Of a stretch of DNA of 64,000 nucleotides, positions 1 through 22,465 are shown piece after piece. The DNA is from Candidatus Bathyarchaeia archaeon (GTDB taxonomy: Archaea; Thermoproteota; Bathyarchaeia; 40CM-2-53-6; DTGE01). The notes below the pieces were generated by a model. That model had not been told where the DNA came from and did not search any database. It saw only the letters and a list, made by a program, of their open reading frames with translations. How positions within the stretch are numbered: position 1 is the first letter of the stretch; each line of letters opens with the position of its first letter. The DNA lies in assembly GCA_038852285.1 (NCBI GenBank), contig JAWCKG010000001.1:73050-137049 (forward strand), read 5' to 3'. The translations under genes and the position numbers were made by a program.

Positions 1-1164
1 GGCTACATCCTTGTCCCCCCGGCCTGAGAGGGTGACCACGATTGTTTCGTCTTTTCCCATCTTTTTGGCCAGTTTCTTAGCGTATGCTAGAGCGTGGCAT
101 GGCTCTAGGGCTGGAACGATGCCTTCAACCCTAGACAGCTCGACGAAGCATGATAAGGCCTCCTCATCGGTCACGGCGTCGTATTCGACTCTTCCAACGC
201 TTTTTAGAAAGCTGTGTTCAGGACCCACACCTGGATAGTCTAAGCCCGCTGAAACGCTATGCGTGTTCTTGATCTGCCCGTGTTCGTCTTGAAGAACGTA
301 GGTTAACATGCCGTGAAAAACGCCTTCTGATCCGGCTGCGAGGGAGGCGGCGTGTTTACCGGTGTTTAACCCAGCGCCACCCGCCTCCACGCCGTACATT
401 TTAACGTCTAAATCCTCCAAGAATGGGTAGAATGTTCCCATGGCGTTGCTTCCCCCTCCCACGCAGGCCACTAGGGCGTCTGGAAGCTTTCCCTCCTTTT
501 CAGCCATCTGCGCCCTGATCTCCCATCCGATGACGCTTTGGAAGTCTCTCACCATCATTGGATATGGATGTGGGCCAACCGTGGAGCCGATTAAATAGTA
601 GGTGGTTTGAGGGTTGGTAACCCAGTCCCTGAGGGCTTCGTTGATCGCGTCTTTTAGGGTTTTAGAACCTGAGCTCACCGGGTGAACCTCGGCGCCGAGA
701 AGCTTCATCCTAAACACGTTAAGCCTCTGCCTCCGCATGTCATCGACACCCATGTAAACCTCGGCTTTTAAGCCCAGCGCGGCGCAAGCCATGGCCGTGG
801 CCACCCCATGCTGGCCCGCACCTGTTTCGGCGATCACCCTTCTTTTACCCATTTTTTTCGCCAGCAACGCTTGACCGATCGTGTTGTTAATTTTATGGGC
901 TCCACCATGAGCCAGGTCTTCGCGTTTAAGGTATATCTTCGCTCCCCCAACCCTTCTAGTGAGGTTTTCGGCGAAGTAGAGGGGGGTAGGTCTTCCAGCG
1001 AACTCCTTGAGGTAGTACTCCAACTCCGACCGGAACCCTAAGTCCTCTTTAAATTTCAAGTAGGATTCCTCCAGCTCCATCAACACGGGCATGAGGGTTT
1101 CAGGTATGAATCTCCCCCCATATTTCCCGAATTTACCCTTTACCGGGTACGTGGTTAACCTCAC
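1..1164 (-). CDS. trpB: Tryptophan synthase beta chain. Partial: the C-terminal end lies beyond the window start.
   Basis: Reverse-strand translation from GTG at 1164 (overlapping the trpF stop as GTGA) gives [22 protein letters not shown]...HGGAHKINN...[10 protein letters not shown]. These are PLP-dependent TrpB signatures. No stop appears before position 1. Confidence 0.85.
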
Positions 1165-1811
1165 GGCCTAGCCTCCTTCGCCTCAGCGATGAACCTACGC
1201 ATCTTCATCCTGTCTTTGACTCCCGGTTTTTCCTCGACGCCGCTTGAAACGTCAACCCCGTAGGGTTTAACCATTCTTATGGCTTTAGCCACGTTCTCCG
1301 GAGTTAGCCCTCCAGCCAGTATTAAGGGGATGGGGGTTATTGCGTCCCTGATCTTCCTGCTCAGGGCCCAGTCGTGAGACACGCCGGTTCCGCCGAGCCC
1401 GTCTAACCCCCCGGTGTCGAGGAGCACGGATCCGAACCTTTGAGAGCACTCTAACGATAGCTTTAATGCGTGGGGTGAGCGCCCATTCACAGCCAAAACG
1501 CAGTTCAAGTTTATTGAGCGGATTTCAGGCGTATAGTAGAGGATTCGTTCAACGTCTCCGTGAAGCTGGAGTTGGTCAACCCTCAAGCTGTAGGCGATCT
1601 CACGGATTTCCTCGATGGAGTTGAAGACGGAGACGGCTACTTTGTCGACGTGTTCGGGAACGAAGCTCAACAACTCTTGGGCTCTACTCATAGACAGGTT
1701 TCTCGGCGAGGATGGGGTTTTCACCACGAATCCGAGGGAGTCAACCCCGGCCTCGACAGCGGCTTTAACGTCCCTTTCACTCGTCACCCCACAGATTTTA
1801 ACTTTAACCAA
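1161..1811 (-). CDS. trpF: Phosphoribosylanthranilate isomerase
   Basis: ORF starts [30 protein letters not shown], typical of PRAI. It sits inside the trp gene string. Confidence 0.85.
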
Positions 1812-1816
1812 TTCGA

Positions 1817-2623
1817 TTAAGCCTCCACTAGGCTCCTAACTTTTTCCTCCACGCTTCGAGCCGACATAACCGCTGAGCCGACGAGGAAGGCTTTAGCTCC
1901 GAAGGCTTTAAGACGCCTCACATGGCTTGGGGATGAGATGCCGCTTTCAGCGACGGTCAACCGGTTTGGCGTAGGGTATTTTCTCAAAAGACGCTCCGCG
2001 ACGTGTAGGTCGACGTTGAGGGTTCTCAGGTCTCTGTTGTTTATTCCTATCAGGTCCGCCTTCGAGCTCACCGCGTTTCTGAACTCGTCTTCGGTATGAG
2101 CCTCCAGCAAGACCTCTAAGCCTAGTGAATGAGCATAGTCGATCATTTCCCTTAATCCAGCGTCACTATAACCGTTATCGAATATGGCTTCTATGAGGAG
2201 AACCGCGTCGGCTCCCGCTCGATAAGCCGCGTCGACCTGAACCCTACTTACAATAAAGTCCTTCATCAAAAGGGGTATGGAAATGCGTCTTTGAAGTATT
2301 TGGAGAGTGTTTAAGGAGCCTTTAAACCATTTCGGCTCTGTTATAACGGAGACCCCTGCTGCTCCGCCGTTCTTCATGGCCGAGGCCACACTTAACGCAT
2401 CCACGTTCTCCCTTAAAGGCCTCCCAGAGGGTGACGCGACCTTGATCTCCGCGATGATGGGATTCTTACCGCATTTGAGCGTGTGAATAACCCCTTCCTT
2501 GAGGCTGATGGCCCTGCGCGGCCTAAACCGCTTCGCCGAAACAGCTCCGACTTCACATTCATAGTATCCGCTTTCAACGGTTTTCCAAGCCCCTAGGGAA
2601 AAGGCGGCTAAATAATCACTCAT
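1817..2623 (-). CDS. trpC: Indole-3-glycerol-phosphate synthase. The ORF track extends to 2662; the Met at 2623 gives a 4-nt gap to the trpD stop and is the likelier start.
   Basis: IAEIKVASPSG and LLIEA motifs of IGPS. Operon context. Confidence 0.85.
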   Translation of the reverse strand: MSDYLAAFSLGAWKTVESGYYECEVGAVSAKRFRPRRAISLKEGVIHTLKCGKNPIIAEIKVASPSGRPLRENVDALSVASAMKNGGAAGVSVITEPKWFKGSLNTLQILQRRISIPLLMKDFIVSRVQVDAAYRAGADAVLLIEAIFDNGYSDAGLREMIDYAHSLGLEVLLEAHTEDEFRNAVSSKADLIGINNRDLRTLNVDLHVAERLLRKYPTPNRLTVAESGISSPSHVRRLKAFGAKAFLVGSAVMSARSVEEKVRSLVEA

Positions 2624-3686
2624 GCTCCTCCAATTCCTCCAGTTTTTCCACGCTCCCTCCACTAAGCTTGATCAAGGATTTCAATTTCTGGTAGGCCAAA
2701 CCGGTGCGGATGGATTCCAAAGCGGCCTCCAACCCCTCCTCAACCGACACCACACCGCCTCCCAAGTAGATGGCGGCCGCCGCGTTCAACAGCACGATGT
2801 TAAGCCTAGACACATCCCTAGGTGACCGTTGGACTCCACTCCCTCGAAGAACCCTGAACGCTATCGAGGCGTTTTCTTCAGGCGTGCGACCCTCAAGATG
2901 GGTTTTGTCAGCGGTTTCTAACCCCAAATCCGCTGGACGGGTTATCGAAGTGGTGATTTCCCCATGATTCAGCTCGGTTATTTTAGTTTCTCCGATTGTG
3001 GATATCTCATCCAGACCGTCGAGGCCGTAAACTACAAGGGCCCTCTTCACGCCTAAGCGGTTTAACACCTTGGCCAGGAGCTCTGTGAGCTGTCCATCGT
3101 ATACGCCGAGGAGTTGAGCTTGAGCGTTGGCCGGGTTTGTTATTGGACCTAGCAGGTTGAAGACGGTTCTGATGCCGATTTCTCGACGGGGCTTAAGGAC
3201 ATGTTCCATGGCTGGGTGGAAAAGTGGAGCGTACATGAATCCAACTCCGATTTCCTCGATAGATTTTTCCACTGATTGAGGGGGCGTTGAAAGGTTGAAT
3301 CCTAGGGCTTCGAGAAGGTCAGCGCTCCCGCATCGACTAGTAATCGAGCGGTTTCCATGCTTCGCTATCGGGACGCCAGCCCCAGCAGCTACGAAGGCCG
3401 CAATGGTGCTGACGTTAAAGGTTTTAAACTTATCACCACCCGTCCCACATGTGTCGACCAATATACCCGAGACGTGAGGATGTATTTGCCGGCTGAACTT
3501 ACGCATCACGGCGGCTAAGCTCGCGATTTCATCCACAGTCTCCCCTTTCATCCTGAGGGCCGTGAGAAAGGAGGCTATTTGAGAATCGGTTGCTTCGCCT
3601 CGCATGATCTCCATCATTATTTTTTCCGCTTCTAAGCTGGTGAGGTCCTGTCCCTCAGTAAGCCTCAATATGCCTTCCCTAATCAT
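2616..3686 (-). CDS. trpD: Anthranilate phosphoribosyltransferase
   Basis: VDTCGTGGDKFKTFNVST PRPP-binding signature. 356 aa. Confidence 0.9.
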   Translation of the reverse strand: MIREGILRLTEGQDLTSLEAEKIMMEIMRGEATDSQIASFLTALRMKGETVDEIASLAAVMRKFSRQIHPHVSGILVDTCGTGGDKFKTFNVSTIAAFVAAGAGVPIAKHGNRSITSRCGSADLLEALGFNLSTPPQSVEKSIEEIGVGFMYAPLFHPAMEHVLKPRREIGIRTVFNLLGPITNPANAQAQLLGVYDGQLTELLAKVLNRLGVKRALVVYGLDGLDEISTIGETKITELNHGEITTSITRPADLGLETADKTHLEGRTPEENASIAFRVLRGSGVQRSPRDVSRLNIVLLNAAAAIYLGGGVVSVEEGLEAALESIRTGLAYQKLKSLIKLSGGSVEKLEELEEHE

Positions 3687-3690
3687 GCGT

Positions 3691-4272
3691 TTAAACCTCG
3701 TCGAGAAAGTTTTTCAACATTCTCTTTCCCTCCTGGGTGAGAATCGACTCCGGGTGGAATTGAACTCCCTCAACCGGGTACTCAATGTGGCGTACACCCA
3801 TAACCTCCTGATCGTCCATGGATTTAGCGGAGACTTTGAGGCATGGAGGGATGGTAAAAATGTCGGCCACAAGGGAATGATACCGCGTGGCTTCAAAGGG
3901 GTTTGGAAGACCCTTGAACACGCCCCCACCGTCGTGGCTTATCATGCTCGTTTTCCCATGCATAAGCCTACGCGCGTGTGTGATTTGGCCACCATAGGCG
4001 TAGACGATTCCCTGATGTCCCAAACATACACCTAGGATAGGTGTTTTGAAGCCCATTTCTTTAATGATCGCGAGGCAGTTTCCGAAGTATCGCCTGTCGT
4101 CGGGTGATCCTGGCCCCGGCGACAAAACTATCCTGTCGGGCTTAAGGGCCTTAATCCTTCTTACCGATATTTTATCGCTCCTGTAAATAGTTGGAGAAGC
4201 CCCTAGCTCGCCGAGATATTGAAGAATGTTGTAGACGAATGAATCATAATTGTCGACTAACAGGACGTTCAA
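3691..4272 (-). CDS. trpG: Anthranilate synthase component II (class I glutamine amidotransferase)
   Basis: GVCLGHQ catalytic Cys motif plus H/E triad region. 193 aa. Overlaps trpE by 4 nt. Confidence 0.9.
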   Translation of the reverse strand: MNVLLVDNYDSFVYNILQYLGELGASPTIYRSDKISVRRIKALKPDRIVLSPGPGSPDDRRYFGNCLAIIKEMGFKTPILGVCLGHQGIVYAYGGQITHARRLMHGKTSMISHDGGGVFKGLPNPFEATRYHSLVADIFTIPPCLKVSAKSMDDQEVMGVRHIEYPVEGVQFHPESILTQEGKRMLKNFLDEV

Positions 4273-5621
4273 GACCTCTCCTCCGCCAGCTTTAAGGCCT
4301 TTATCAAAGCCATCGCTTTAAGCTCCGTTTCAATCCATTCTCGGGTAGGATTTGAGTCCGCGACGATGCCCGCGCCAACCTGAATGTGAGCCTTATCGCC
4401 GTCGGCGGTCAGCGTTCGTATGGTTATGGCGAAGTCTGCGTCGCCGTTGTAGGAGAAGTATCCAACAGCGCCTGCGTATGGGCCTCTCCTAGTTGGCTCA
4501 AGCTCATCTATGATTTCCATAGCCCTGACTTTAGGGGCGCCTGACACCGTGCCAGCTGGAAAAACGGCTTTAAACACGTCGAATGAGTCGCGTTGAGGCG
4601 ATAGGCGGCCAGTCACCTTGGATACGATGTGCTGTACATGGCTGTATTGGTGTACGACCATGAACTCGGGGACCTGGATTGACCCGTAATCGCACACCTT
4701 CCCTAAGTCGTTTCTAGCTAAGTCGACTAACATGATGTGCTCAGCTCTTTCTTTCTCGTCTGAGAGAAGCTCCTCAGCGAGGGCTTGGTTAAGATACGGG
4801 TTGTCAAGTTTAGGCCTCGTTCCAGCAATCGGATAAGTTTCAACAACTCCATTCTCAACCCTCGCTAGCATTTCAGGGCTGGATCCCACGACCTGCCTTG
4901 CGCCATGCTTTAAGAAATACATGTAAGGTGAGGGGTTAATTCTCCTCAGTTGCCTGTAGAATCCTATAAGGTCACCTTGAAAGTTAAATTCAAACCGTTT
5001 GGAGATGACAACTTGAAATATGTCTCCGTTAAAAATGTAATGTTTCGCCTTCTTAACGTTCTCTTCAAACATCTCTTGATCTACGTTTACCTTCGGCTCG
5101 GTGAACGTTAATCCGTTTTCAACATTCCCCAGAGGCTTTTGAAGGTGCTTTTCAACTTCGCGAAATCGACATTCCCCGCGATAATAGTAGTAGGCCCTTC
5201 CTTCAAGGTGGTTAAAGACCAAGCCGTCATCGTATACTCCCATTTCAACGTCGGGGAAGTTCAGGTCATCGACGGGTTTCCCTGTTAAGTGTTCCCAGCG
5301 TCTAACGGTGTCGTAAGACACGTATCCCACCGCGCCTCCGACAAGACGATCTCCCACGTGAACTCTATTTTCCATCACCGTGTTTCTTATCGGTTTTAAT
5401 GGGTTGTCGCATTTATCGGCTCTTCGCTCATCTCCGTTTTGAACCTCAACTGTCCCGTTTTTCACCGCGATCAGTTTATTGGGGTTGAAACCTATAAAAG
5501 AGAATTCGGCGAGTTTTCTCGGGCCTTCACCCGACTCTAGAAGGTACAGGTTTTGACACTCGTCGAATAGGTTTATAAAATACTCTAAGGGGTCTCGGTA
5601 TGGGATTTCCCTGTAACCCAT
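4269..5621 (-). CDS. trpE: Anthranilate synthase component I
   Basis: 450 aa chorismate-binding enzyme with GTRPK and GAGIVADS motifs. First gene of the operon. Confidence 0.9.
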
Positions 5622-5826: not shown

Positions 5827-6285
5827 CTAAAGAGTCCTCTCGTTCAAAACCATTTCAACGATGTAGCCAGCCTTCCGCGCTTCCCGATCCACCAGCCCTC
5901 TTACCTTCGACCAATCAAATTCATACTTGTAGTCTTTCCCAAACAACTTCGAAAGCTCCTCAACGCTTCCAACCCTCTCCTTGCCCATCACCTTATATTT
6001 CTCAGCTTTAAATCCGAAGCCTGGAGAAATGTCTTCGCCTCCGGACACCCCTACACCTGTTTCTTTCAATGTTTCGAAGAATTTCACCTTTCTCGAGTCA
6101 TCATCCACACGTAATTTCGCCCTGTACATCAACGCCTTCTTAGAAAGAAAGACCTTCCTTTCCGCGACCTTCATTTCAAGCGAAAGTACACCCTCCTTCT
6201 CCTCTTTAAAGCTCGCAGGCAGGTCCTTACAGGCCTTAATAATTCTCTCCTTTAACGACATATGAACCATACACCTAACTTCCAC
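5827..6285 (-). CDS. Hypothetical protein (152 aa, Lys/Glu-rich; real start may be the internal MSLKERI)
   Basis: Intact ORF between the trp promoter region and a divergent promoter region. I recognise no motifs. Confidence 0.35.
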   Translation of the reverse strand: MEVRCMVHMSLKERIIKACKDLPASFKEEKEGVLSLEMKVAERKVFLSKKALMYRAKLRVDDDSRKVKFFETLKETGVGVSGGEDISPGFGFKAEKYKVMGKERVGSVEELSKLFGKDYKYEFDWSKVRGLVDREARKAGYIVEMVLNERTL

Positions 6286-8874: not shown

Positions 8875-9282
8875 ATGTGTAGTGGGTTGAAAACTTTTCG
8901 GTTAAATACTGGTTTATTGGTTTCAGGCTTATACTTTATTTTGCAGTCGCTCCTATCTTCTTTAATCCTTATCATTCAAGGCGCGTTCAGTCCCGTCCTA
9001 ATCCTTAACATCCTTTTAGGAATCATAGCAGGTTTGGGGGTTTTGATGAAAAGGAGGATAGGATTCTACATCGCCCTTCTCTCCGCCCCCATCGTGTTTA
9101 CCGCATTCTTTTTCCCCGCACTATACTCTCTCAATATGTTTAGGGGAGTCGAGGGCGCGTCCTTCTTCGCATACCAGGTCGGCTTAATCCTAGTAGGATT
9201 GACTTGGCCCATAATGTGCTTCGTACTCATAGACAAACGCGAGGAGTTCAAGAAAGGACAAGTCCTTGAAACGGCGAGCTAA
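8875..9282 (+). CDS. Small polytopic membrane protein, hypothetical
   Basis: 135 aa with 4 hydrophobic helices. Divergent from speB. Confidence 0.4.
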   Translation: MCSGLKTFRLNTGLLVSGLYFILQSLLSSLILIIQGAFSPVLILNILLGIIAGLGVLMKRRIGFYIALLSAPIVFTAFFFPALYSLNMFRGVEGASFFAYQVGLILVGLTWPIMCFVLIDKREEFKKGQVLETAS

Positions 9283-9356: not shown

Positions 9357-10169
9357 GTGGTCGCATTGAAGCGCGATTCAAGACCTGAAATTCGCGAGTC
9401 CATTAAATCTAAAGTACGTGGAAAGCCTCGATTAAGGGCGGCGGCTAGACCGAGGGCCTCTCAAATGAATGGAGGGTTGGTTTCTTTCGTGATTCCAACG
9501 AGAAACGAGCCTAAAATCGGGACTTTAATCGAGGAGGTTAAACGCGTTATGAACTCCTTGCGGCGGAGGTTTGAGGTCATAGTGATCGATCGATCTGACG
9601 ACGATACGATGGAGAGAGCCGCCAAGGCTGGCGCTAAGGTCTATACTCAGAGTAGTGTAGGGTTGGGTGGGGCTTTGATGGAGGGTTTGCTGAAGGCGAA
9701 GGGCGATTTGGTGTTCACGATGGATGGCGATTTGAGCCATAACCCTCAGTATATTCCACGATTCTTACAAGGGGTGGAGTTGGGTTTCGACGTGGTGGTG
9801 GGTTCAAGGAAACTGCCCGGTGGGGGGATTAAGGGATGGGGTTTGAGTCGGAAGTTGATTTCAGCGGTGGCCAACGCGGTTGGAAGGTGGCTCGCGGGGG
9901 TAAACGTGTCAGACCTCACCTCAGGGTATCGAGTCTATACGGCGAAGGCTGTGAGAAGCCTAGATCCAAACCTCATCACGGCCAGGGGGTTTTCGTTCCA
10001 GCTTGAGATCCTGTTCCATTTGCTAAGGAATGGGTTTAAGGCGACCTCAGTACCCATCGTATTTGTGGACAGGAAAGTTGGAAGGTCCAAGTTGACGAAG
10101 AGGGAGGTTTTCGAGTTTCTCCGCACTGCCTTCAGGCTGCTTCGACTTCGAGTCAGGAATGTATGGTAA
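9357..10169 (+). CDS. GT2 glycosyltransferase, dolichyl-phosphate mannose/glucose synthase (DPM1)-like. The Met at 9465 is the likelier start.
   Basis: FVIPTRNE, IDRSDDDT, DGDLSHNP and SGYRVY motifs of DPM1/AglJ-type GT-A enzymes. The N-terminal 36 aa are Arg-rich and atypical. Confidence 0.8.
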   Translation: MVALKRDSRPEIRESIKSKVRGKPRLRAAARPRASQMNGGLVSFVIPTRNEPKIGTLIEEVKRVMNSLRRRFEVIVIDRSDDDTMERAAKAGAKVYTQSSVGLGGALMEGLLKAKGDLVFTMDGDLSHNPQYIPRFLQGVELGFDVVVGSRKLPGGGIKGWGLSRKLISAVANAVGRWLAGVNVSDLTSGYRVYTAKAVRSLDPNLITARGFSFQLEILFHLLRNGFKATSVPIVFVDRKVGRSKLTKREVFEFLRTAFRLLRLRVRNVW

Positions 10170-11469
10170 GCTGGCCCTTACCTGTTTTTGGCGTTCGGTG
10201 GAAATGTCCTCTACTCTTGAAAAGCCCATCGATCACGGCTTTAGAATAGTTCAACAGCATCGTGTAAAAGAAGATGGATAAGTAGATTAGTTTGACGAAC
10301 CCTCGAGCCCGATCCTTCAACGTGTTTTTCGACTTAAAAATCGTGGTGGTAGCGGCCGCCAGTGGAGCTGTGTAGATTACTGAGGATAAAATGACGTTGA
10401 AAATTAACAGAAGGTAGTTTTTGAGGTTTTCAAAGTAAAAGTTCTTGGGAAACATGAGGGCGTAAGCCGCTCCAACCCCCATTCCAACCAGCGAAATCGG
10501 GCATAGCGTGTATGTGGCCAAGTATATTATCGACTCAAAACGCTGAAGGAAGGTTAGGTTTTTCTCCGCGATCAAGGCTTTCCAATGCTTTTTCAAACAC
10601 TCCGTGAACCCTCGAGCCCATCGATACTGCTGGTTTTTAAGGGCCTTAAACGTAGGGGGAATCTCACCTGGAACCTCTAAGTTCGGAAGGTATATGTGTT
10701 TCCATCCGTTTATCTTCAATCGAATGGAGAGGTCGAGGTCTTCGGCTAAGGTGTCGGCTTTCCATCCACCAACCTCCACAATCGCCTCCTTCCTGAACAC
10801 GGCGCAGGTTCCGTTAAAATGGGGGATAAGGTTTGCAAGATACCGAGCGACTTGATCCACTTTATTGTATATGTCTATGGCCAAGGATATAGCCTTGGCG
10901 TACCACGAAAACTCGCCGTCAATATACGTCCATCGAGCCTGAACGAAGGCAACCCGATCATCCATATACAGGTATGGAATAACCTGCTTCAAGAAGTCTC
11001 TTGGAGGAATGAAGTCGGCGTCGAAGATCGCTATTACGTCTCCGCTGGAGGCTTCAAGGGCCCTTTGCAATGCGCCGGCCTTAAACCCCTCTCGGCTATT
11101 CCTATGGATCAGCTTTACCGAGGCATTTGTTTCCCTCATAAAGCTCTCCACGATCGCCGTGGTTCCGTCGTTAGAATCATCTATCACGATGACCTCCAAC
11201 AGTTTCTTTGGGTAGTCAAGCCGCGCACAGGCTTCCAGTATCCTTCTAGCCACTCTTCGCTCATTGTAGAATGGAAGGTGTATGCTCACATTGGGCCAAC
11301 GTCTCGGAGGAGGCGGCGTCTCATCATTCTTCTTCTTCAAAATCGATGAGGCTGTTAAGTACCATAGGTCTAGGGAGTATATGCCAGCCGCGGTGATTAA
11401 TATGGACGTTAATATTAAGATGAGTTGTTGGAGGGGACTCAGCCCCGATGGGAGAATCTTCACTTTCAC
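10153..11469 (-). CDS. Processive family-2 glycosyltransferase (cellulose/chitin/hyaluronan-synthase-like), membrane-embedded
   Basis: N-terminal TM, GT-A core with DXD (IFDADFIPP) and the processive-synthase QxxRW motif (QQYRWARG). Four C-terminal TM helices follow. Confidence 0.75.
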   Translation of the reverse strand: MKVKILPSGLSPLQQLILILTSILITAAGIYSLDLWYLTASSILKKKNDETPPPPRRWPNVSIHLPFYNERRVARRILEACARLDYPKKLLEVIVIDDSNDGTTAIVESFMRETNASVKLIHRNSREGFKAGALQRALEASSGDVIAIFDADFIPPRDFLKQVIPYLYMDDRVAFVQARWTYIDGEFSWYAKAISLAIDIYNKVDQVARYLANLIPHFNGTCAVFRKEAIVEVGGWKADTLAEDLDLSIRLKINGWKHIYLPNLEVPGEIPPTFKALKNQQYRWARGFTECLKKHWKALIAEKNLTFLQRFESIIYLATYTLCPISLVGMGVGAAYALMFPKNFYFENLKNYLLLIFNVILSSVIYTAPLAAATTTIFKSKNTLKDRARGFVKLIYLSIFFYTMLLNYSKAVIDGLFKSRGHFHRTPKTGKGQLTIHS

Positions 11470-11552
11470 TCCACTCTTCTATGAGCATTCATTTGGTCTA
11501 CGTGATTGATTTATAACTTTTATTAAATGGCCGCGAGGGTTAAATTCTATTC

Positions 11553-13769
11553 ATGAAACCTTTGAGCCTGCGCCGAGTCATCGTTTTCAGCCTGCTGTCT
11601 AGGCTGGTCTTATCACCCCTCACCGGACATCCATGGGACTTAAAGGTCTGGCTTGATGTGGGTAAACGGGTTACGGAGGGAGATATGAACCTCTACAGTC
11701 TAAACGGAAGACCTGAATGGATGTGGGGGTATTACGCTTATCCTCCAGGTTGGATGGGTTGGTGCGGGCTAGCCTACCTATTTAACTTCAACATCCACTT
11801 ATACGCAATCGTCCTGAAGCTTCCAATAATCCTCTCAGATCTAGCGACGGGCTATCTGATCTATCTTACCTTAAGGAGACTTGGTCAGTCGGAGGCTGAG
11901 TCCACATGTGGAGCGGCTCTATATTTTCTAAACCCTGTTTCGATCCTCATCTCGTCAGTTTGGGGCATGTTTGACGCCATACCAGCCATGCTCACCATCA
12001 TGGCCTTAAACCTGTTCATGGAGAAAAGCGAGCTGAGAGCTGGGATTCTGCTGGGTCTTGGCATTCTTTTTAAACTATACCCCGTCTTCCTAATATTGGC
12101 TTTTCTGGGCCAGGCTCGCCAAAGCGGAACTACGCCTCGCAAGTTGCTGGGGTTTTTATCAACAACCGCGGCGATTCCATTAGTGGCTTCCATACCCTTC
12201 ATCTTACGAGACTTCAAGGGATACGTGAACGCCCTGTTAAGCCATGCAGCTCCGTCAGGTTATATGAGCCTCTGGTTCACCATATCCCATTTATTCCACC
12301 CGTTAAAGGAGAAGAGCGGTGTATTGTTTTTAACCATGTTTATCACGTTGAATGTGTTTGTTTTTCGACGCCTCAGCCTTAGCAGGGGGTTGAACAACGA
12401 ATCAATTTACCTGACTTCATTGCTAATAATGCTTTGTTTCTTCATCGCGTCCCCTAAGGTGAATCCTCAATATGTGGTGTGGCTTTTACCTTTAGCCATC
12501 ATCGATTTCACCACCCGTCGAAGCGTTTTTACATATGGGTCGCTCAGCGGGATGACGGCTTTAACGTCCCTCATCATTACAGGAGCCATGGCTGTGAATA
12601 ACTCGTTTCTATTAGTTGACGTCGGTTTCCCAGACCCGGCCGTTGTTCAAAGCTTCATGGCTGCTATTGCGATTTCCTCGATCCTTTTTCCAATCCTATG
12701 CCTCGCCTATTTTCGCCGTACCTTAACGTTAGGAGTTTATAGGCCCCGTTGGCCAGGAAGGCTTGGCGTGACTTTAATCCTCATCATATTGGCCCTCAGC
12801 TACTTCACAGCTCCCATCCCCAAGAAGGTGGATGTGAAAACTCCTTTCATTCTATCCATGCCTGAGAGCCCGGCTACTGGGTTTACACCCATGCTTGCCG
12901 AATATGGGGTGAGGGAATTTCAGTCAAAGTATCGGAGCGATGGAGTTGTTTTACTCTTCGGCCCTGACTTCATCAACACCTACAGTGGATATGATCCGGA
13001 CAGAGATGTGAGGATGTTCTTCAAAGCGTATTACTATGATGAGTGGACGCAGAGGAGCGTTCGTGAGCTGGTTCGAAACCTGCACGAAGAGGGTGTGAAG
13101 GCGTATCTTGGAATCTTCACATTGAAGGATTATTTGGTCGATGGAAGGGGTTATGTTTCGCCATGGCTGAATAATCACAGCGAGGTCGTGGATGATAATC
13201 TCTTAAGGTTCGATAAAACCCTCCTCGAAAACGGGTCATCTCAAGCCTATTACGTTTATTTTAGCGAAAAAACTTTGAGGGTCGTGGTTGACTTCAACTT
13301 TGACGGGGTGGCCATTTTAAACCTCGTTTTAGAAGTGCCCCCCGCAGGATATTTCGAAGGTTTGTTAAAGTTGGCTGACCATTTGAATCGAACCATGGAG
13401 AAGGAGGTAATCCTCTGCGACACAATCGGAAGAAAGGCGTTCAACGACTATGAGGCGTTGCTGACTTACTCAGACCACCTCATCGTGCAGGCTTTACCTT
13501 GGTCTCGCGGCGTATACTACATGAAGGGAGAATATTGGTTTAGTAGTTTGATGCCTCAGGTAGCCGAAGCGGTGATGGGGGTAGGGCCTACCGGTAGGGC
13601 GAGGATTCTGTTAACGGTGGAGGTGATGGATGAACAGGAAGGATGGGTTAACTCACTTTATCTTATTAAAAGGGAGTTAAACGAGTTTGAAAAACTGGGG
13701 GTAGGTGGGCTCGTACTGGTTTACGCTAACCGGTTTTCTCCGTACTCGCTGAGCCGCCTTGACCTCTAA
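11553..13769 (+). CDS. Large polytopic membrane protein (738 aa), putative GT-C-fold glycosyltransferase (PMT/DUF2029-like) with a C-terminal soluble domain of about 300 aa
   Basis: At least 10 predicted TM helices in the first 430 aa. An Asp- and aromatic-rich first loop (WDLKVWLDVG..PEWMWGYYAYPPGWMGW) resembles GT-C donor-binding loops. Sits next to DPM1-like and QxxRW GTs. The functional call is inference. Confidence 0.45.
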   Translation: MKPLSLRRVIVFSLLSRLVLSPLTGHPWDLKVWLDVGKRVTEGDMNLYSLNGRPEWMWGYYAYPPGWMGWCGLAYLFNFNIHLYAIVLKLPIILSDLATGYLIYLTLRRLGQSEAESTCGAALYFLNPVSILISSVWGMFDAIPAMLTIMALNLFMEKSELRAGILLGLGILFKLYPVFLILAFLGQARQSGTTPRKLLGFLSTTAAIPLVASIPFILRDFKGYVNALLSHAAPSGYMSLWFTISHLFHPLKEKSGVLFLTMFITLNVFVFRRLSLSRGLNNESIYLTSLLIMLCFFIASPKVNPQYVVWLLPLAIIDFTTRRSVFTYGSLSGMTALTSLIITGAMAVNNSFLLVDVGFPDPAVVQSFMAAIAISSILFPILCLAYFRRTLTLGVYRPRWPGRLGVTLILIILALSYFTAPIPKKVDVKTPFILSMPESPATGFTPMLAEYGVREFQSKYRSDGVVLLFGPDFINTYSGYDPDRDVRMFFKAYYYDEWTQRSVRELVRNLHEEGVKAYLGIFTLKDYLVDGRGYVSPWLNNHSEVVDDNLLRFDKTLLENGSSQAYYVYFSEKTLRVVVDFNFDGVAILNLVLEVPPAGYFEGLLKLADHLNRTMEKEVILCDTIGRKAFNDYEALLTYSDHLIVQALPWSRGVYYMKGEYWFSSLMPQVAEAVMGVGPTGRARILLTVEVMDEQEGWVNSLYLIKRELNEFEKLGVGGLVLVYANRFSPYSLSRLDL

Positions 13770-15795
13770 ACCTTTTCACATAGCAGTTGGGGCACGTTAA
13801 CAAAGGCCTTCGACGCGTAGTCTTGACCTGAACCATTTGAAACCCACATTCCGAGCATTTCTTATCCGTAAGCGTTAATTTACCGGTCTGGGGAAGCGGG
13901 AGTGTGAAGCCGCATCTATTCGAACAACCAATAAACCTCTTCCCTGTGCTGCGGCTTTTAACCACCTTCATAGGGGCCCCGCAGCTTGGACACGGCGTAT
14001 TTAAGGCTTTGTTCTCAGTTTTCATTCGTTTTAAAGCCTCAGACAGCTGGCTTCCCACGTTATTCTCCTCAAGCTTCAATTTTAGTAGGGCGTTCCTGAG
14101 GTTTACGGATGACTGGTAGACGACTTCTTCCCTAGTTTTCAACCCTAACTCGATTTTCTGCATTTGCTCTTCAAGGCTTCTTGTTAAATCCACATCTATG
14201 ATCTCGGGGCAGTAATGCGACAGAAGGTCTATGACCTTTTGAGCTAGGATTGTGGCCTTCATCTGCTCGCCTTCTACATATCCTCGGCTGTAGAGCGTGT
14301 CGATAATGTCGGCTCTGGTGGCTTTCGTGCCGATTTCCTCTCTCTCCATCCTTTTCAGCAAGCTTCCAGGGTTAAACCGAGGTGGTGGCTGAGTATACTT
14401 TAACTGAACGACGGACTTTAGAACCTTCACCTTCATGCCTTCCTCGATGAACGGTATGGGCTGACCTTCCGCTTCCAAGTGAGGGTAGATCTCTGTCCAT
14501 CCTGGCTCCAAAACTCTTAAACCCTTCAAGTAAAACGAATAGCCTTCCACGTCGATTTCAGCCCTGAGAAACTCCTTCAGCGAGGGCCTCGCGAAAGTCG
14601 AGAGAAAACGCCTCACTATCAGGTCATATATCTTTTCTCCATAGCTGGGCAGGGGTTGGATTGGACGCTGACCCGTAGGATAGATGGCGGGGTGCGCTGG
14701 ATCCGATTTAGGCCCTTCTATAGGCTTTAAAGGCGACTCCAACTTCGCTATGTATTCTCGATATTTGGTCTCCTTCAACTTCTCCACAATTTCACGGTAG
14801 CCTATAGAGGGGGGGAGCTTCTGGCTCCCAGTTCTCGGATAGGAGATTAACGCGTCTAAGTATAGTCGTTCAGCCACGTTTAAAGTAAGTTTAGGAGGAT
14901 ATCGAAATCGTCTGTACGCTTCGGATTGTAAGGAGGCGATGTCAAACGGAGGTGGGGGAGGAGTTTTAACAAACGTTTTTCGAACCTCTCTCACCACTCC
15001 ATCCGCTTTTTCGCATCGCCTACGCACCTCATCGGCTGCTTGGGCGCTCTCAATTTTGACCGAATACTCGGCTTTCAGCCTCACTCCGTCTACTTCAACA
15101 TTTAGATAGGCTTCCCAGTATGGGTTTGGAACGTATGTTAAAATTTCCTTCTCTCTTTCAACGATGAATTTTAATGTGGGGCCTTGAACCCTACCCGTGC
15201 TTAGGGTTGAGTATCGGCCACTGACGTTTCTCGCCGACTCGGTTAAGGCCCTTGAAAGATTTATTCCGTAAAGCCAGTCCACTTCATGCCTACACATGCC
15301 GGCATGGATGAGCGGGTAGTCTAACGTCGGTGACCGGTTCTTGTAAGCTTCCCTCAACTCTTGATCCGTTAACGTGCTGAACTTCATTCGACCGGCCTGA
15401 ACCGATCCGCAAGCGTATTTTACTATCGTATATCCGATTACAGAGCCCTCTACGTCGTAGTCGCAAGCGTTGACGATCTGGTCTACGTTCCGGGAAAGGC
15501 TAGCGATAACTTCGATGTAGGCTTTACACTTCACGGATTTTCTGTCGGATTCATGTTTGGGTTTCCAAGCGTAGTCCCACACTGGATACTCCCTCCGGCT
15601 TGAATCGTCTTTCTGCGCTACCTCGTAGAGGTGGCCTAGGGCGCTGCAAATCAATATATCCTCCTCAGGTGTTGCTAACTTGAAATATGTGACGCCGCGA
15701 TCTATTTCCTTCACCGGTTTTTCACAGGCCAACGCGCAGGCGATCCTTTCAGCGGCCGCGGGTTTTTCGCATACGATGAGTATCTTACGCTTCAA
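13726..15795 (-). CDS. topA: DNA topoisomerase, type IA (Topo I/III-like) with C-terminal Zn ribbons
   Basis: N-terminal Toprim MKRKILIVCEKPAAAERIA. Central topo-IA core. C-terminal CPSCGAPM..CSNRC and CSECG..CPNC zinc ribbons. At 689 aa with no helicase domain it is not reverse gyrase. Confidence 0.9.
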   Translation of the reverse strand: MKRKILIVCEKPAAAERIACALACEKPVKEIDRGVTYFKLATPEEDILICSALGHLYEVAQKDDSSRREYPVWDYAWKPKHESDRKSVKCKAYIEVIASLSRNVDQIVNACDYDVEGSVIGYTIVKYACGSVQAGRMKFSTLTDQELREAYKNRSPTLDYPLIHAGMCRHEVDWLYGINLSRALTESARNVSGRYSTLSTGRVQGPTLKFIVEREKEILTYVPNPYWEAYLNVEVDGVRLKAEYSVKIESAQAADEVRRRCEKADGVVREVRKTFVKTPPPPPFDIASLQSEAYRRFRYPPKLTLNVAERLYLDALISYPRTGSQKLPPSIGYREIVEKLKETKYREYIAKLESPLKPIEGPKSDPAHPAIYPTGQRPIQPLPSYGEKIYDLIVRRFLSTFARPSLKEFLRAEIDVEGYSFYLKGLRVLEPGWTEIYPHLEAEGQPIPFIEEGMKVKVLKSVVQLKYTQPPPRFNPGSLLKRMEREEIGTKATRADIIDTLYSRGYVEGEQMKATILAQKVIDLLSHYCPEIIDVDLTRSLEEQMQKIELGLKTREEVVYQSSVNLRNALLKLKLEENNVGSQLSEALKRMKTENKALNTPCPSCGAPMKVVKSRSTGKRFIGCSNRCGFTLPLPQTGKLTLTDKKCSECGFQMVQVKTTRRRPLLTCPNCYVKRFRGQGGSASTEKTG

Positions 15796-16042
15796 TCTCC
15801 GATCTAACCCTTAAATGCTCGATGACGGCTTTAACGGCCAGGCCTGTTTCCTTCAATCCATAAACCTTTTCCAAATAGTCTTTAAACTCCAGTTTCCCGT
15901 CGAAGGCTTTGAGCCAAACGTCGTAGCCTAGCCTCAGTTTTTCATAGGCTTCTTCGTGAATTGCACAGTACTCGCTTTGAGGTGACCGTGCCCCACATAT
16001 AGGGCACCGCTGATCAGAAAGCTTCATCCCCAAAGTTCTCAT
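15785..16042 (-). CDS. Small Zn-ribbon protein (85 aa), hypothetical
   Basis: CPICG...CAIH Cys/His cluster. Overlaps the topA start by 11 nt and the upstream ORF by 4 nt, which suggests translational coupling. Confidence 0.4.
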   Translation of the reverse strand: MRTLGMKLSDQRCPICGARSPQSEYCAIHEEAYEKLRLGYDVWLKAFDGKLEFKDYLEKVYGLKETGLAVKAVIEHLRVRSEIEA

Positions 16043-16557
16043 CCCCTTTTGCCCGGTCTAGGCGCGAGAGAGCCGATGAGAAGCATTGTTGATGCTGCGA
16101 ACTGGGCAACGGCGTATTTCACAATTACAGGCCACTGGATGAAAGGTTGAATAAGTTGAACGATGTTTTCAGCTGAGGCTTTAAAAGACGGCTCAATGGA
16201 CGCCAGGTAAGCCGCCACCCTAACTGGTAACGGTGATGAAAGTATGAACAACCCGAACAGGGATCCCGCGTATAAGAACAATAGGAGCGAAGAAAACGCC
16301 GCTGCCTTATACGATGGCCGCGTGGCAGTCCTCCACTTTCCCATCAATGACCCGCGTATTGAATAACTCCAGGAGGCCGCTGCTTGTAGGATGGTGGCAC
16401 CCGACACCAACCAGATTAAGGGAATGGAGTGTTTGAAATAGGGCGTTGTGAACGTAGTTTGTAATGGTGAGGCCTCGACGTATCTTGTAAAGTAGAGTTG
16501 GATGGCTGTGAAGGCTAGCATGTATAGTATGAGGTTGGCGGCGGATTTTCGACTCAT
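16039..16557 (-). CDS. Membrane protein, hypothetical (172 aa, 4-5 TM)
   Basis: Hydrophobic ORF in the guaB-topA string. Confidence 0.4.
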   Translation of the reverse strand: MSRKSAANLILYMLAFTAIQLYFTRYVEASPLQTTFTTPYFKHSIPLIWLVSGATILQAAASWSYSIRGSLMGKWRTATRPSYKAAAFSSLLLFLYAGSLFGLFILSSPLPVRVAAYLASIEPSFKASAENIVQLIQPFIQWPVIVKYAVAQFAASTMLLIGSLAPRPGKRG

Positions 16558-20413: not shown

Positions 20414-21424
20414 TTAGGGGGTTAAGGGTAACGTTACCGGTATGCCTTTCCTCGCTGATTCATACGCGGCTAGCGTGATTTCGACGCCCTGTCTTCCATC
20501 AAACCCAGTGGCCTTCGGTTTTTTATCTCTCAGGATACATTCAACAAACCCTTTCACCATCTCCTTATCGGCGTCGCATCCCCAGTAATGCCATTCCAGT
20601 CGATCGTTGGGCGGATTGGCTTCGATGACGTTCACGTTTTGTCTGAACGCGTCGATTTGAATCAAACCTTCTGTTCCAAGGATTTCCATCGCCATGTGTC
20701 CCCATGTGTAGAACCCCTTCGGCCTTGACCAACTTCCATCGATTGTTCCGAAGGATCCATTTTTGAAGGTGACGAACGTTAAAGCATTATCCTCAACCTT
20801 AACGTCTCCATGGATGTTTTTCCCGATTTCCGTGTATACAGTCTTGGCTTCGCTTCGAGTATACCATCGCATCAAGTCGGCTAAGTGAACGGTATGGTCC
20901 ATGACGCTTCCGCCTCCGGAAAGGGCGGGTTCGATGAACCATCCGTAGACAAGCCACTTCAACTGGTTTGTGCCAGTCATAGCGACGATCCTCCCAATCT
21001 CACCTTTAGCGATCAAGTCTTTCACTAGGCTTGTGACGGCATGATACCTCATCACATAGGCTGTCTGCAACTTCACCCCCGCCTTCTCCGCGGCTTTAAG
21101 CATCGCGTCAGCGTCCTTTAAAGTGGTGGCTAGGGGTTTTTCGCAGAGCACGTGTTTTCCAGCTTCAGCGGCGTCGATCACCATCGCCGCATGTCTAACG
21201 TTTTCAGCCGTCACGATCACCGCGTCCACATCATCCCTGCTTAAAAGCTTCCGGTAATCTAGATAGAAGTCGACGGAGTACTGCTCAGCCACCTTTCTTC
21301 CGCGGGCTTCATCATCGTCGGCCACGGCGACTAGCTTGGCGTTCGGAAGTTCGACGACGCATCTCGCGTAGCTATATCCGTGGAAGTGCGCGAAGCTGAT
21401 AACCCCTATTCTAACTTCCTTCAC
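20414..21424 (-). CDS. Gfo/Idh/MocA-family NAD(P)-dependent oxidoreductase
   Basis: N-terminal Rossmann IGVISFAHFHG and EKP motif. C-terminal alpha/beta domain. Confidence 0.8.
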   Translation of the reverse strand: MKEVRIGVISFAHFHGYSYARCVVELPNAKLVAVADDDEARGRKVAEQYSVDFYLDYRKLLSRDDVDAVIVTAENVRHAAMVIDAAEAGKHVLCEKPLATTLKDADAMLKAAEKAGVKLQTAYVMRYHAVTSLVKDLIAKGEIGRIVAMTGTNQLKWLVYGWFIEPALSGGGSVMDHTVHLADLMRWYTRSEAKTVYTEIGKNIHGDVKVEDNALTFVTFKNGSFGTIDGSWSRPKGFYTWGHMAMEILGTEGLIQIDAFRQNVNVIEANPPNDRLEWHYWGCDADKEMVKGFVECILRDKKPKATGFDGRQGVEITLAAYESARKGIPVTLPLTP

Positions 21425-21430
21425 GGCTCA

Positions 21431-22465
21431 TCAACCCTCCAAGGGAATTTTCACCGGCTCACCCCTTTTCGAGGAAGCTTTGGCGGCCAACGCGATTTCC
21501 AGCGCCTTCCTCGCCTCCTCCCCACCGGTGAGAGGAGTCCTCCCCTTCAACACGCAGTCAGCGAAATGCCTTATCTCCCGGTAATATGGATCTATGGGAA
21601 AAGGCATCCCCTCCACCCATCTTTCCGTGTCAACCCCGTAGTGGGCAATTTTCCCCTTAGACATGACGGTTAACGGTACAGTGTCATGGTTGTTGAAGGA
21701 GACGAACCCCTTGGTGCCTGAAAGCTCTAAAGCGTACGTGAACGGGTATTCCTGTGGAACCGCCCAAGACGCTTCGATATGAGCGACACCCCCTCCTTGA
21801 AACCTCAATATCATGAGGGCATGGTCATCCATGTTAGCGTCTTTTCTCACAAACCTACCAACCTTCGCGTATACTCTGGCCACATCCTGGTTAAAACACC
21901 ACCTCACGAAGTCAATGTCGTGGATCGCCAAGTCGACGGATACGCCCCCACTCCGCTTCTGCTCCTTAAACCAGCTCTTCACACCCCAACCGGGCAACGG
22001 ACCGGCCCTCAAGGCTCTAGCGATCACAGGCTCACCAAGCACACCCTTATCCAGAAGCTCTTTCACCTTCATGTACTCGGAGAAAAACCTGATGCAATGG
22101 GCTACCATGAAGGTTACACCCGCCTTCTTAACCGCTCCAATGATCCTATCCGCGTCCCTTAAAGTCAAGGCGATGGGCTTCTCCAATAAAACGTTCTTCC
22201 CAGCCTTCGCCGACTCCACGGCGACCTGAGCATGGGTGTCCGTTGGGGTGCAGATGTCAACCACGTCGACATCCTTTCTCTCCAAAACATCCCGATAATC
22301 CCCGTATACCTTCATCTTAAATTTCTTAGCCTCCTTAGCGATCTGTTTCCCCCTAACGTCGGAAACAGCCACCAGCCTCGCCTCTGGCACCATGGACCAC
22401 CCAGTGGCATGCGTGTGTCCCATGAAGCCGAAGCCGATGACCGCCACTCCGATCGAATTCTTCAA
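21431..22465 (-). CDS. Gfo/Idh/MocA-family NAD(P)-dependent oxidoreductase (tandem paralog)
   Basis: VAVIGFGFMGHTHA and EKP motifs. 7 nt downstream of its paralog. Confidence 0.8.
   Translation of the reverse strand: MKNSIGVAVIGFGFMGHTHATGWSMVPEARLVAVSDVRGKQIAKEAKKFKMKVYGDYRDVLERKDVDVVDICTPTDTHAQVAVESAKAGKNVLLEKPIALTLRDADRIIGAVKKAGVTFMVAHCIRFFSEYMKVKELLDKGVLGEPVIARALRAGPLPGWGVKSWFKEQKRSGGVSVDLAIHDIDFVRWCFNQDVARVYAKVGRFVRKDANMDDHALMILRFQGGGVAHIEASWAVPQEYPFTYALELSGTKGFVSFNNHDTVPLTVMSKGKIAHYGVDTERWVEGMPFPIDPYYREIRHFADCVLKGRTPLTGGEEARKALEIALAAKASSKRGEPVKIPLEG

Follow-up and report, generated by a model that had tools for sequence, protein, structure and literature searches.

Does a run of three adjacent glycosyltransferase genes in a bathyarchaeial genome encode the machinery for a secreted polysaccharide, or a system that glycosylates molecules bound to the membrane? 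The question is raised by a locus within a 64,000-nucleotide stretch of DNA from a Candidatus Bathyarchaeia archaeon (contig JAWCKG010000001.1; this whole stretch is here called the window and gives the numbering for all positions), in which a preliminary description had recognized an exopolysaccharide cluster composed of a DPM1-like glycosyltransferase (GT) of family GT2, a processive QxxRW synthase and a 738-residue polytopic protein of GT-C type. Analyzing these three proteins together with their relatives, we consider the chances about even that the locus serves surface glycosylation by a membrane-bound, dolichol-dependent module and is not a classical secreted-polysaccharide island, a prediction drawn from sequence and modelled structure. 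Within that model the half comprising the sugar donor and the GT-C enzyme appears rather probable, while the role proposed for the second GT2 enzyme is tentative, with the odds somewhat against it.

The three open reading frames (ORFs) lie side by side on alternating strands, as described earlier, and because each has highly significant homologues none of them is a chance ORF. Two of the entries below are parts of the largest protein.

9357–10169, forward strand: the GT2a ORF of 270 aa, a putative dolichyl-phosphate hexose synthase, i.e. a DPM1/AglJ-type GT2 without transmembrane (TM) helices
10153–11469, reverse strand: GT2b, 438 aa, a membrane GT2 with the BcsA fold
11553–13769, forward strand: the 738-aa GT-C protein, consisting of a membrane domain and a C-terminal barrel
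11553–12821, forward strand: the GT-C membrane domain, a PIG-M/PimE-like core of 12 TM helices plus TM13 (residues 400–424)
12822–13769, forward strand: a GH18-like (beta/alpha)8 barrel, predicted to be extracytoplasmic (residues 424–738, 315 aa)

The 738-residue protein: a GT-C core with a GH18-like barrel

That the 738-residue protein is a GT-C enzyme was supported by family models, profile comparison and structure prediction alike. It matched the Pfam GT87 model (PF09594) with 35.2 bits, the cutoff being 25, over residues 84–301, and a profile of 11 homologues searched against the Protein Data Bank found glycosylphosphatidylinositol (GPI) mannosyltransferase 1 (Gpi14/PIG-M; 23gx_B, 9wno_A) with an E-value of 6e-16, aligning the motifs K89..D96, LNP..I.IS, FK(I/L)YP, H231 and KVN.QY. 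Foldseek comparison of an AlphaFold2 (AF2) model also gave C. glabrata Gpi14 with dolichyl-phosphate mannose (Dol-P-Man) as the top match (9wno_A; template modelling score TMt 0.70, 20% identity), followed by PIG-U and ALG6; the model was of moderate quality (predicted local distance difference test score, pLDDT, 79.5; predicted template modelling score, pTM, 0.68), with loops 51–62, 349–359 and 394–423 poorly modelled. Homologues of the protein were already annotated with PF09594, PF06728, PF05007 or PF26314; to PF05007 the protein itself had no match at E ≤ 0.01, and some homologues matched weakly. Its nearest database relative, 98% identical, is labelled Candidatus Bathyarchaeia, and the related loci likewise come from metagenome-assembled genomes of Bathyarchaeia, which places the window in that class.

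About 13 TM helices are predicted, and the layout of the 12-helix core matches that of Gpi14, a protein of 12 TM helices whose termini both lie in the cytoplasm and which carries in its first extracytoplasmic loop (EL1) a catalytic DxD motif of which both Asp residues are required (PMC12653191). As had been noticed before, Asp and aromatic residues abound in EL1 of the window protein (GHPWD...WGYYAYPPGW). The DxD motif of family GT50 is not present in it; the family sequence at this place is HPWD-x-x-VW, in which only one Asp is conserved. This residue, Asp29 of the GHPWD sequence (nt 11625–11639), stands just after TM1, is invariant or nearly so in the 11 homologues and is the putative catalytic residue. 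Gpi14 furthermore needs the lumenal protein Pbn1, held by one TM anchor, for a continuous substrate channel (PMC12653191). In the window protein an Arg-rich cytoplasmic loop (RRTLTLGVYRPRWPGR) follows the core, and after it come TM13 and the C-terminal soluble domain of 315 residues, which the positive-inside rule predicts to be extracytoplasmic since the Arg-rich loop precedes TM13.

In the AF2 model this soluble domain consists of alternating beta and alpha elements at high pLDDT. Its Foldseek matches were the lectin SI-CLP, which scored best, GH18 chitinases, SleL and the Endo-beta-N-acetylglucosaminidases H, F1 and BT1285, with E-values to GH18 proteins of 5e-6 to 1e-4. A profile of the barrel alone (alignment A4) matched GH18 chains only, weakly (E 0.005–1) and aligned at the FDG strand; the barrel had no Pfam match, nor did any GH-family profile reach significance. 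The GH18 motif DxxDxDxE is absent from the barrel, which has FDGVAILNL instead, at positions whose equivalents vary in the 11 homologues, and the MxYD motif of GH18 is absent across the family. The reading as an active GH18 enzyme was rejected on the absence of the catalytic motif, and assignment to a known Pfam or GHL family failed for want of a family match, a single distant relative, P0168, showing a weak match to GHL6. Conserved in the barrel are E438, W498, D584, D641, D693 and G697-W698, and it carries three N-x-S/T sequons.

An exhaustive HMMER search among 1.84 billion protein representatives found 37 relatives of the barrel, nearly all of them proteins of 740–770 aa with the barrel likewise C-terminal, from Bathyarchaeia, Caldarchaeales and a few other lineages. 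The GT-C protein with barrel is thus a rare, unannotated fusion architecture. The NCBI label of one homologue, P0004, is [Eubacterium] cellulosolvens, probably from a mis-binned or contaminating archaeal contig; P0004 and the GT2b homologue P0119, each listed with a longest contig of 23,058 bp, are presumably on one contig.

GT2a: a putative dolichyl-phosphate hexose synthase

The description of GT2a as DPM1-like was upheld. The protein matched PF00535 with an E-value of 9e-21 over profile positions 1–164 of 168, giving a complete GT-A domain, with DGD (residues 123–125, nt 9723–9731) as its DxD motif. Its best solved relative was the Dol-P-Man synthase of Pyrococcus furiosus (5mlz, E 2e-29), followed by ArnC proteins, the undecaprenyl-phosphate 4-deoxy-4-formamido-L-arabinose (Ara4FN) transferases, and its top NCBIfam matches were AglJ (84 bits, cutoff 325) and a haloarchaeal Dol-P-hexose transferase (76 bits, cutoff 375). 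No TM segments were found by hydropathy. We read GT2a as a putative dolichyl-phosphate hexose synthase.

The gene is probably shorter than its ORF. Its homologues in syntenic loci have 231–238 aa, and the first 36 codons (9357–9464) encode a K/R-rich tail without counterpart in them; for these reasons the real start is probably not the GTG at 9357 but the in-frame ATG at 9465, before the conserved MNGGLVSFVIPTRNE, which would give a protein of 234 aa (9465–10169).

GT2b: a shortened BcsA-fold enzyme

GT2b had been described as a membrane GT2 with DXD and QQYRW motifs and, on that ground, as a processive beta-glycan synthase. The motifs were borne out. The Pfam models PF00535, PF13641 and PF13632 span a complete GT-A domain, and BcsA is the solved protein closest to GT2b both by sequence (E 1e-25 with the single sequence, 4e-40 with a profile) and by fold, being the top Foldseek match (9b8v_E, E 7e-21, TMq 0.72) of an AF2 model with pLDDT 91.5 and pTM 0.90. 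PcManGT (6YV7) was matched with TMt 0.80 and a profile E-value of 3e-28. Scoring conservation in an alignment of 22 homologues (A3), we found the following motifs, the first four of them together with HFxGT (217–221) invariant or at least 90% conserved, including the motif residues D97/D98, D150/D152 and E243/D244.

11173–11181, reverse strand: DDS, residues 97–99
11014–11025, reverse strand: FDAD (DxD), residues 149–152, in invariant columns
10726–10746, reverse strand: AEDLDLS, residues 242–248, with the catalytic base
10618–10632, reverse strand: QQYRW, residues 280–284; Q280, Q281, R283 and W284 are invariant in the 22 homologues
10180–10203, reverse strand: FHRTPKTG, residues 423–430, putative counterpart of the BcsA/CesA gating-loop motif FxVTxK

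The gating loop FxVTxK of BcsA and CesA follows the interface helix IF3 and contacts the nucleotide (PMC10592267). Its putative counterpart in GT2b, F423-x-R425-T426-x-K428-x-G, comes after an amphipathic helix (384–417) and has an invariant Arg in place of Val; R425 and T426 are invariant and F423 and K428 at least 90% conserved. From the N-terminus, GT2b thus comprises a TM helix, the GT-A domain, an interface helix with QQYRW, two TM helices, the amphipathic helix and the gating-loop-like motif, and the chain ends eight residues past that motif. Three segments are hydrophobic enough to cross the membrane (9–36, 314–341 and 352–377). Helix 384–417 is probably an interface helix, as it is amphipathic with K/R-rich sequence on both sides.

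The label of a processive enzyme is, on the other hand, doubtful. BcsA forms a closed polysaccharide channel from six helices, TM3–8, in one protomer. With three TM segments and a chain that stops after the gating-loop-like motif, GT2b has no such closed one-protomer channel and would provide half of that of BcsA, as in the non-polymerizing PcManGT, which has three TM helices, binds GDP-mannose and is called a ‘minimal cellulose-synthase-like fold’ in the title of its report. In NCBIfam, GT2b stayed below the cutoffs for CelA (142 bits, cutoff 699), PgaC/IcaA (120, cutoff 422) and NodC (47, cutoff 550), and it was also matched by ceramide glucosyltransferase and HpnI, which are non-polymerizing QxxRW enzymes.

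The early end of the chain is common to the bathyarchaeial proteins. Comparing the loci numbered L008–L025 with L029–L094 in our set, we found that GT2b ends at most 30 residues from the start of the RTPK motif in all 13 bathyarchaeial loci scored, whereas the 59 non-bathyarchaeial relatives (from Caldarchaeales, Nitrososphaeria, Chloroflexi, Bacteroidota and others) without exception have a tail of over 60 residues at this point, which contains two extra TM helices wherever inspected. Since the 13 end early and the 59 keep the tail, bathyarchaeial GT2b is, as judged from these sequences, a shortened derivative of a probably channel-forming family. The homologues in L029, L030, L031 and L038 (Calditenuaceae/Caldarchaeales/Cenarchaeum) have a further C-terminal extension of ~200 aa past the extra TM helices, with a conserved EGNPVWIFPTPRTDF motif and another TM helix at its end.

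It had also been suggested that QxxRW synthases are uncommon in archaea, which did not hold for this family. It has more than 3500 significant matches, is ~50% identical across Bathyarchaeia and occurs in Nitrososphaeria and Caldarchaeales too; a profile scan found a relative in at least 592 species-representative genomes, a scan of genome contigs with the single protein having given no match. GT2b is a core bathyarchaeial gene adjoining that of TopA and is not rare. A literature search for a characterized archaeal glycolipid GT2 or a cellulose-synthase-like enzyme of Nitrosopumilus returned nothing usable.

Conservation and pairing of the genes

Gene neighbourhoods were compared over 94 loci, using tblastn with the window proteins. 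The order GT2a (forward), GT2b (reverse), GT-C (forward) and TopA (reverse) is repeated in L012, where the GT-C protein is 49% identical, and at least GT2b, GT-C and TopA follow in the same orientations in L013 (75% identical). In L014 (38% identical) the GT-C gene adjoins that of TopA and the GT2 genes are not there. The search in related genomes thus recovered the trio or most of it in two loci, and the more distant GT-C loci, like L014, lacked GT2 genes: the three-gene arrangement is kept only to ~49% GT-C identity, in one subclade, and vertical inheritance could by itself explain it.

Across Bathyarchaeia a slot of variable content separates TopA from GT2b, and the synteny goes on with a small membrane protein of four TM helices, agmatinase and RsmB; in some loci, nine in number, GT2a comes between GT2b and the small protein. 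Between TopA and GT2b, most loci have nothing in the slot; the GT-C gene fills it only in the window, L012 and L013, and a GT4 gene does so in L008, L009 and L018. That GT4 fills the place of GT-C in other Bathyarchaeia suggests that the slot holds a variable ‘second transferase’. Other occupants of the slot are a 338-aa polytopic membrane protein in L019 and a 175–195-aa TM protein common to L017, L019 and L021.

In the window, GT2a and GT2b are convergent and overlap by 17 nt, the GT-C gene overlaps the 3' end of the topoisomerase gene by 44 nt, and GT2b and GT-C diverge from a short spacer, presumed from its sequence to be a shared bidirectional promoter.

11470–11552, between the divergent genes: AT-rich GT2b/GT-C intergenic spacer of 83 bp, with TTTATAA and TTTTATTAAA boxes read from the sequence

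The proposed partnership of GT2b and GT-C gained some independent support elsewhere. A GT2b-type gene is directly followed by one for a GT87/PIG-U-like GT-C without barrel in the Chloroflexi loci L033, L039, L042 and L073 and in the archaeal L032, and such GT-C genes lie within 4–7 kb of GT2b-type genes in several loci of Nitrososphaerales and Calditenuis. In P0013 (L007, 5755–8058) a GT87-like membrane domain is fused to a cytoplasmic GT2 domain in which QRSRV replaces QxxRW; a GT4 gene follows it. We rejected a DPM1-like identity for this domain, as it matched the GT2b profile (hhalign probability 97%, E 7e-11) and not that of GT2a. The pairing recurring in Chloroflexi and archaea, together with the fusion, is moderate evidence from sequence that BcsA-fold GT2 and GT87-like GT-C enzymes cooperate. 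The Chloroflexi genes belong to an operon-like run (L033, 7995–13037; L042, 7788–12910; also L039 and L073) of a GT2b-like GT2, the PIG-U/GT87-like GT-C, a ~280-aa protein and a B12-binding radical SAM protein, which may serve to modify lipids or glycolipids.

The term exopolysaccharide cluster found no support in the surroundings. According to Pfam searches with the window proteins, the locus is flanked by the housekeeping genes trpFCDGE and those of RsmB, agmatinase, TopA and IMPDH. Neither export or polymer-modifying genes nor genes for nucleotide sugars, sugar activation or cyclic di-GMP were found in the window flanks, which argues against an exopolysaccharide operon, and no BcsB-, PilZ-, hydrolase- or deacetylase-type genes were found in the window.

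A model for the locus

As derived from homology, GT2a would be a peripheral enzyme that works on the cytoplasmic side of the membrane, charging dolichyl phosphate with a hexose taken from a nucleotide sugar, and the resulting Dol-P-hexose would be flipped across by some other factor. The GT-C protein, whose fold and motifs place it with enzymes such as GPI mannosyltransferase I and PimE, would then pass the hexose on outside the cell, Asp29 serving as the presumptive base. TM13 would set the GH18-like barrel over the active site in a manner reminiscent of Pbn1 on Gpi14; lacking the catalytic motif, the barrel is probably an acceptor-binding lid. As all of its fold relatives bind glycans containing N-acetylglucosamine (GlcNAc), the acceptor is probably a GlcNAc-containing glycan anchored to lipid or protein, possibly a GlcNAc-type lipid-linked chain or, given that Bathyarchaeota carry Agl24/Alg13-14 homologues, an N-glycan with a chitobiose core. 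The least certain step concerns GT2b. Working on the cytoplasmic side through a half-channel open sideways to the bilayer, the mode of action proposed for PcManGT, it would most plausibly build or lengthen an acceptor anchored in the membrane; that acceptor would be Dol-P(P)-linked or a beta-glycan on a membrane lipid. By itself, GT2b probably does not extrude a free polymer.

Weighing the alternatives

A number of observations weigh against this model. GT2a stays below every NCBIfam equivalog cutoff by a wide margin, and its gene is missing from several otherwise syntenic loci. No flippase was identified at the locus, and the small 4-TM protein encoded beside it has no match to GtrA. More distant GT-C homologues stand apart from GT2 genes: those with barrel at 38% identity or less adjoin genes of PolB, ribosomal proteins or Thy1 with no GT2 gene near, and among them those at 26–29% identity (in Caldarchaeum and others) lie by PolB, agmatinase and RsmB, or by the S5-L30-SecY cluster. 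From this it follows that the GT-C enzyme needs no neighbouring GT2a or GT2b gene. The remaining points bear on the separate alternatives.

The first of these, which follows the preliminary description and which we regard as unlikely, is that GT2b is a true processive beta-glycan synthase that translocates its polymer (cellulose-, chitin- or poly-N-acetylglucosamine-like), the channel being completed by homo-oligomers or by the small 4-TM protein in the manner of PgaD/IcaD, with the GT-C enzyme decorating the polymer, as it emerges, with Dol-P-hexose made by GT2a, and the barrel gripping a GlcNAc-type chain. GT2b does retain every motif of a processive synthase, including a putative gating loop (FxRTxK), BcsA is its closest solved relative and the PgaC/IcaA model aligns with it over its full length (23–402); oligomers or a partner protein could complete the channel, the two extra TM helices of the longer relatives inspected outside Bathyarchaeia fit an ancestral channel, and the barrel is similar to GH18 proteins that bind chitin and GlcNAc. 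Against this reading stand the three TM helices, compared with the six that form the channel of BcsA, the occurrence of QxxRW in non-polymerizing enzymes, of which ceramide glucosyltransferase and HpnI match GT2b, and the housekeeping context without export, BcsB-, PilZ-, hydrolase- or deacetylase-type genes. The small protein named as a partner in this reading is the following.

8875–9282, forward strand: small membrane protein of 135 aa with four TM helices, as seen from ORF and hydropathy

Homologues of this ORF lie between GT2a/GT2b and agmatinase in L008, L010, L012, L016, L019, L021, L022, L025, L026 and L027, so that no fewer than 10 loci of Bathyarchaeia have a small TM protein next to GT2b. 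Among the motifs shared in the family are GVGL..LKRW..WL and LLID.R..FK. However, neither the window protein nor its 10 positional homologues matched any Pfam family, GtrA (PF04138) and PgaD included, even at E ≤ 5, by which identities as GtrA, PgaD or IcaD were rejected for all 11, and the protein is unlike the missing C-terminal TM pair of the longer GT2b relatives (hhalign probability 0.2%), so that sequence gives no support for its being that pair in detached form, although it may be functionally analogous. From its position, it may be an accessory subunit. The 151-aa neighbour of the GT-C gene in Caldarchaeum, considered as a counterpart, is soluble and unrelated.

A second alternative, in our judgement slightly less likely still, is that the three genes do not form one pathway. 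GT2b would then be a housekeeping enzyme (for a step in N-glycan lipid-linked oligosaccharide or glycolipid head-group synthesis), the TopA/GT2b junction a hot spot for glycosyltransferases, and GT2a with GT-C either a separate AglD/AglS-like module or enzymes whose partners are encoded elsewhere. Such a reading is favoured by the changing contents of the TopA-GT2b slot (nothing, GT4, membrane proteins or, in the window, L012 and L013, GT-C), by the GT-C proteins with barrel in Caldarchaeales and others that have no neighbouring GT2 genes, and by the confinement of the trio to one subclade, for which vertical inheritance suffices. It is opposed by the adjacency of GT2b- and GT87-type genes that arises independently in Chloroflexi and other archaea, by their fusion in P0013 and by the divergence of GT2b and GT-C from the 83-bp spacer within the subclade.

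A more specific proposal, and a long shot, would make the 738-residue family the archaeal counterpart of the GPI-mannosyltransferase-I holoenzyme, in which a PIG-M-like core with a cis-fused domain in the role of Pbn1/PIG-X mannosylates a lipid-anchored glycan, be it a lipoglycan started by GT2b or an anchor of inositol-phospholipid or GPI-like type. If so, the envelopes of Bathyarchaeia and Caldarchaeales would have in common a conserved GPI-like or lipoglycan anchor pathway.

Least probable by our estimate is a barrel that works as a glycoside hydrolase or transglycosylase with a catalytic site unlike that of GH18, making the 738-residue protein bifunctional in sugar transfer and in trimming or remodelling of a surface glycan: E438, D584, D641 and D693, conserved along the barrel as is G697-W698, could form another type of catalytic site, the fold class is mostly hydrolases and the distant relative P0168 weakly matches GHL6 of Pfam, but both GH18 motifs are absent across the family, the best structural match is the non-catalytic lectin SI-CLP and no GH-family profile is significant. 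Since this last reading concerns the barrel alone and can be combined with any other, our estimates do not sum to one.

Further features of the window

The full run trpF-trpC-trpD-trpG-trpE lies upstream at 1161–5621 (reverse strand). Between it and RsmB, a 152-aa ORF (5827–6285, reverse strand) without Pfam match overlaps two antisense ORFs, which are probably spurious. Downstream of TopA (15785–16557, reverse strand) are an ORF of 85 aa rich in Cys (CPICG...C) and a membrane protein of 172 aa, both without Pfam match, and in L012 two ORFs of comparable length (75 and 162 aa) occupy the same position after TopA. Two tandem GFO/IDH/MocA oxidoreductases (20414–22465, reverse strand), ~7 kb downstream of the glycosyltransferase genes and not adjacent to them, might modify sugars. 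An Rfam scan of the window gave zero RNA families.

Implications

The locus yields three candidates for study, namely a core shortened GT2 of the cellulose-synthase fold, a DPM1-type donor synthase and a rare GT-C enzyme with a chitinase-like domain. Should the GT-C enzyme use Dol-P-hexose on lipid- or protein-linked GlcNAc glycans, as in the module favoured here, archaea would possess in it a parallel to the lumenal assembly of N-glycans and GPI in eukaryotes, and it would also be a tractable fused model for accessory lumenal domains that complete GT-C active sites. GT2b furthermore cautions that a QxxRW motif alone is insufficient to infer processivity.

Comparison with known systems

The closest likeness of the 738-residue protein is to Gpi14/PIG-M (GT50) with Pbn1/PIG-X. 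They share the 12-TM GT-C core (TMt 0.70; profile E 6e-16), the motifs K..D, LNP..I.IS, FKIYP, H and KV.xQY, an implied site for a Dol-P-sugar donor, an acidic residue in EL1 after TM1 and a large extracytoplasmic or lumenal domain on a single TM anchor above the catalytic centre. Here, however, the accessory domain is part of the same polypeptide, following TM13, and is a GH18-like TIM barrel, in contrast to the beta-sheet fold of Pbn1, EL1 has one conserved Asp (HPWD) in place of DxD, PF05007 is not matched and no GPI genes are nearby. With PimE and other GT87 (DUF2029) proteins it shares a Pfam GT87 score above the gathering threshold, the polytopic character and a conserved Asp in EL1; unlike PimE it is archaeal, carries the 315-aa C-terminal barrel and matches the GT87 model over residues 84–301 only. 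Distant prokaryotic relatives of the eukaryotic lumenal GT-C enzymes are known to carry PMT or DUF2029 domains (Lombard 2016). The barrel itself has the (beta/alpha)8 fold of GH18 chitinases, SI-CLP and Endo-beta-N-acetylglucosaminidases, with weak similarity at the FDG strand, and differs from GH18 proteins in lacking DxxDxDxE and a Pfam GH18 match across its family and in being tethered to a GT-C enzyme.

Like GT2b, PcManGT (Pcal_0472 of Pyrobaculum calidifontis, 6YV7) is a GT2 from archaea whose GT-A domain resembles that of BcsA and which has three TM helices; GT2b differs from it in having QQYRW, the extra amphipathic helix and FxRTxK; alignments to PcManGT end at residue 271–272, before these elements. 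With BcsA and PgaC/IcaA, GT2b has in common the D, DxD, ED and QxxRW motifs and the interface helices, and it has a gating-loop-like motif, whereas its three TM helices, the lack of a closed channel and of a PilZ domain, and the lack of any BcsB, PgaD or PgaB homologue set it apart. As a whole, the locus is similar to the Gtr systems (GtrA/GtrB/GT-C) and to haloarchaeal AglD/AglJ-AglS, where AglS is an archaeal example of a Dol-P-Man-dependent GT-C, in that a gene for a DPM1/GtrB-type synthase lies near that of a GT-C enzyme to which its product would serve as donor outside the membrane. Unlike in Gtr systems, no GtrA (PF04138) flippase was detected, a BcsA-fold GT2 is encoded between the two and the GT-C enzyme has a GH18-like domain.

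Known, then, are the superfamily of each component (DPM1-type GT2, BcsA-fold GT2 and GT87/GT50-like GT-C) and the pairing of a Dol-P-sugar synthase with a GT-C enzyme, as in Gtr and in AglD/AglJ with AglS. New as variants are the GT-C enzyme with a GH18-like barrel, of which there are 37 representatives and for whose barrel no Pfam model exists, the Bathyarchaeia-specific shortened BcsA-like synthase with three TM helices and a retained gating-loop-like motif, and the recurrent pairing or fusion of a BcsA-fold GT2 with a GT87-like GT-C.

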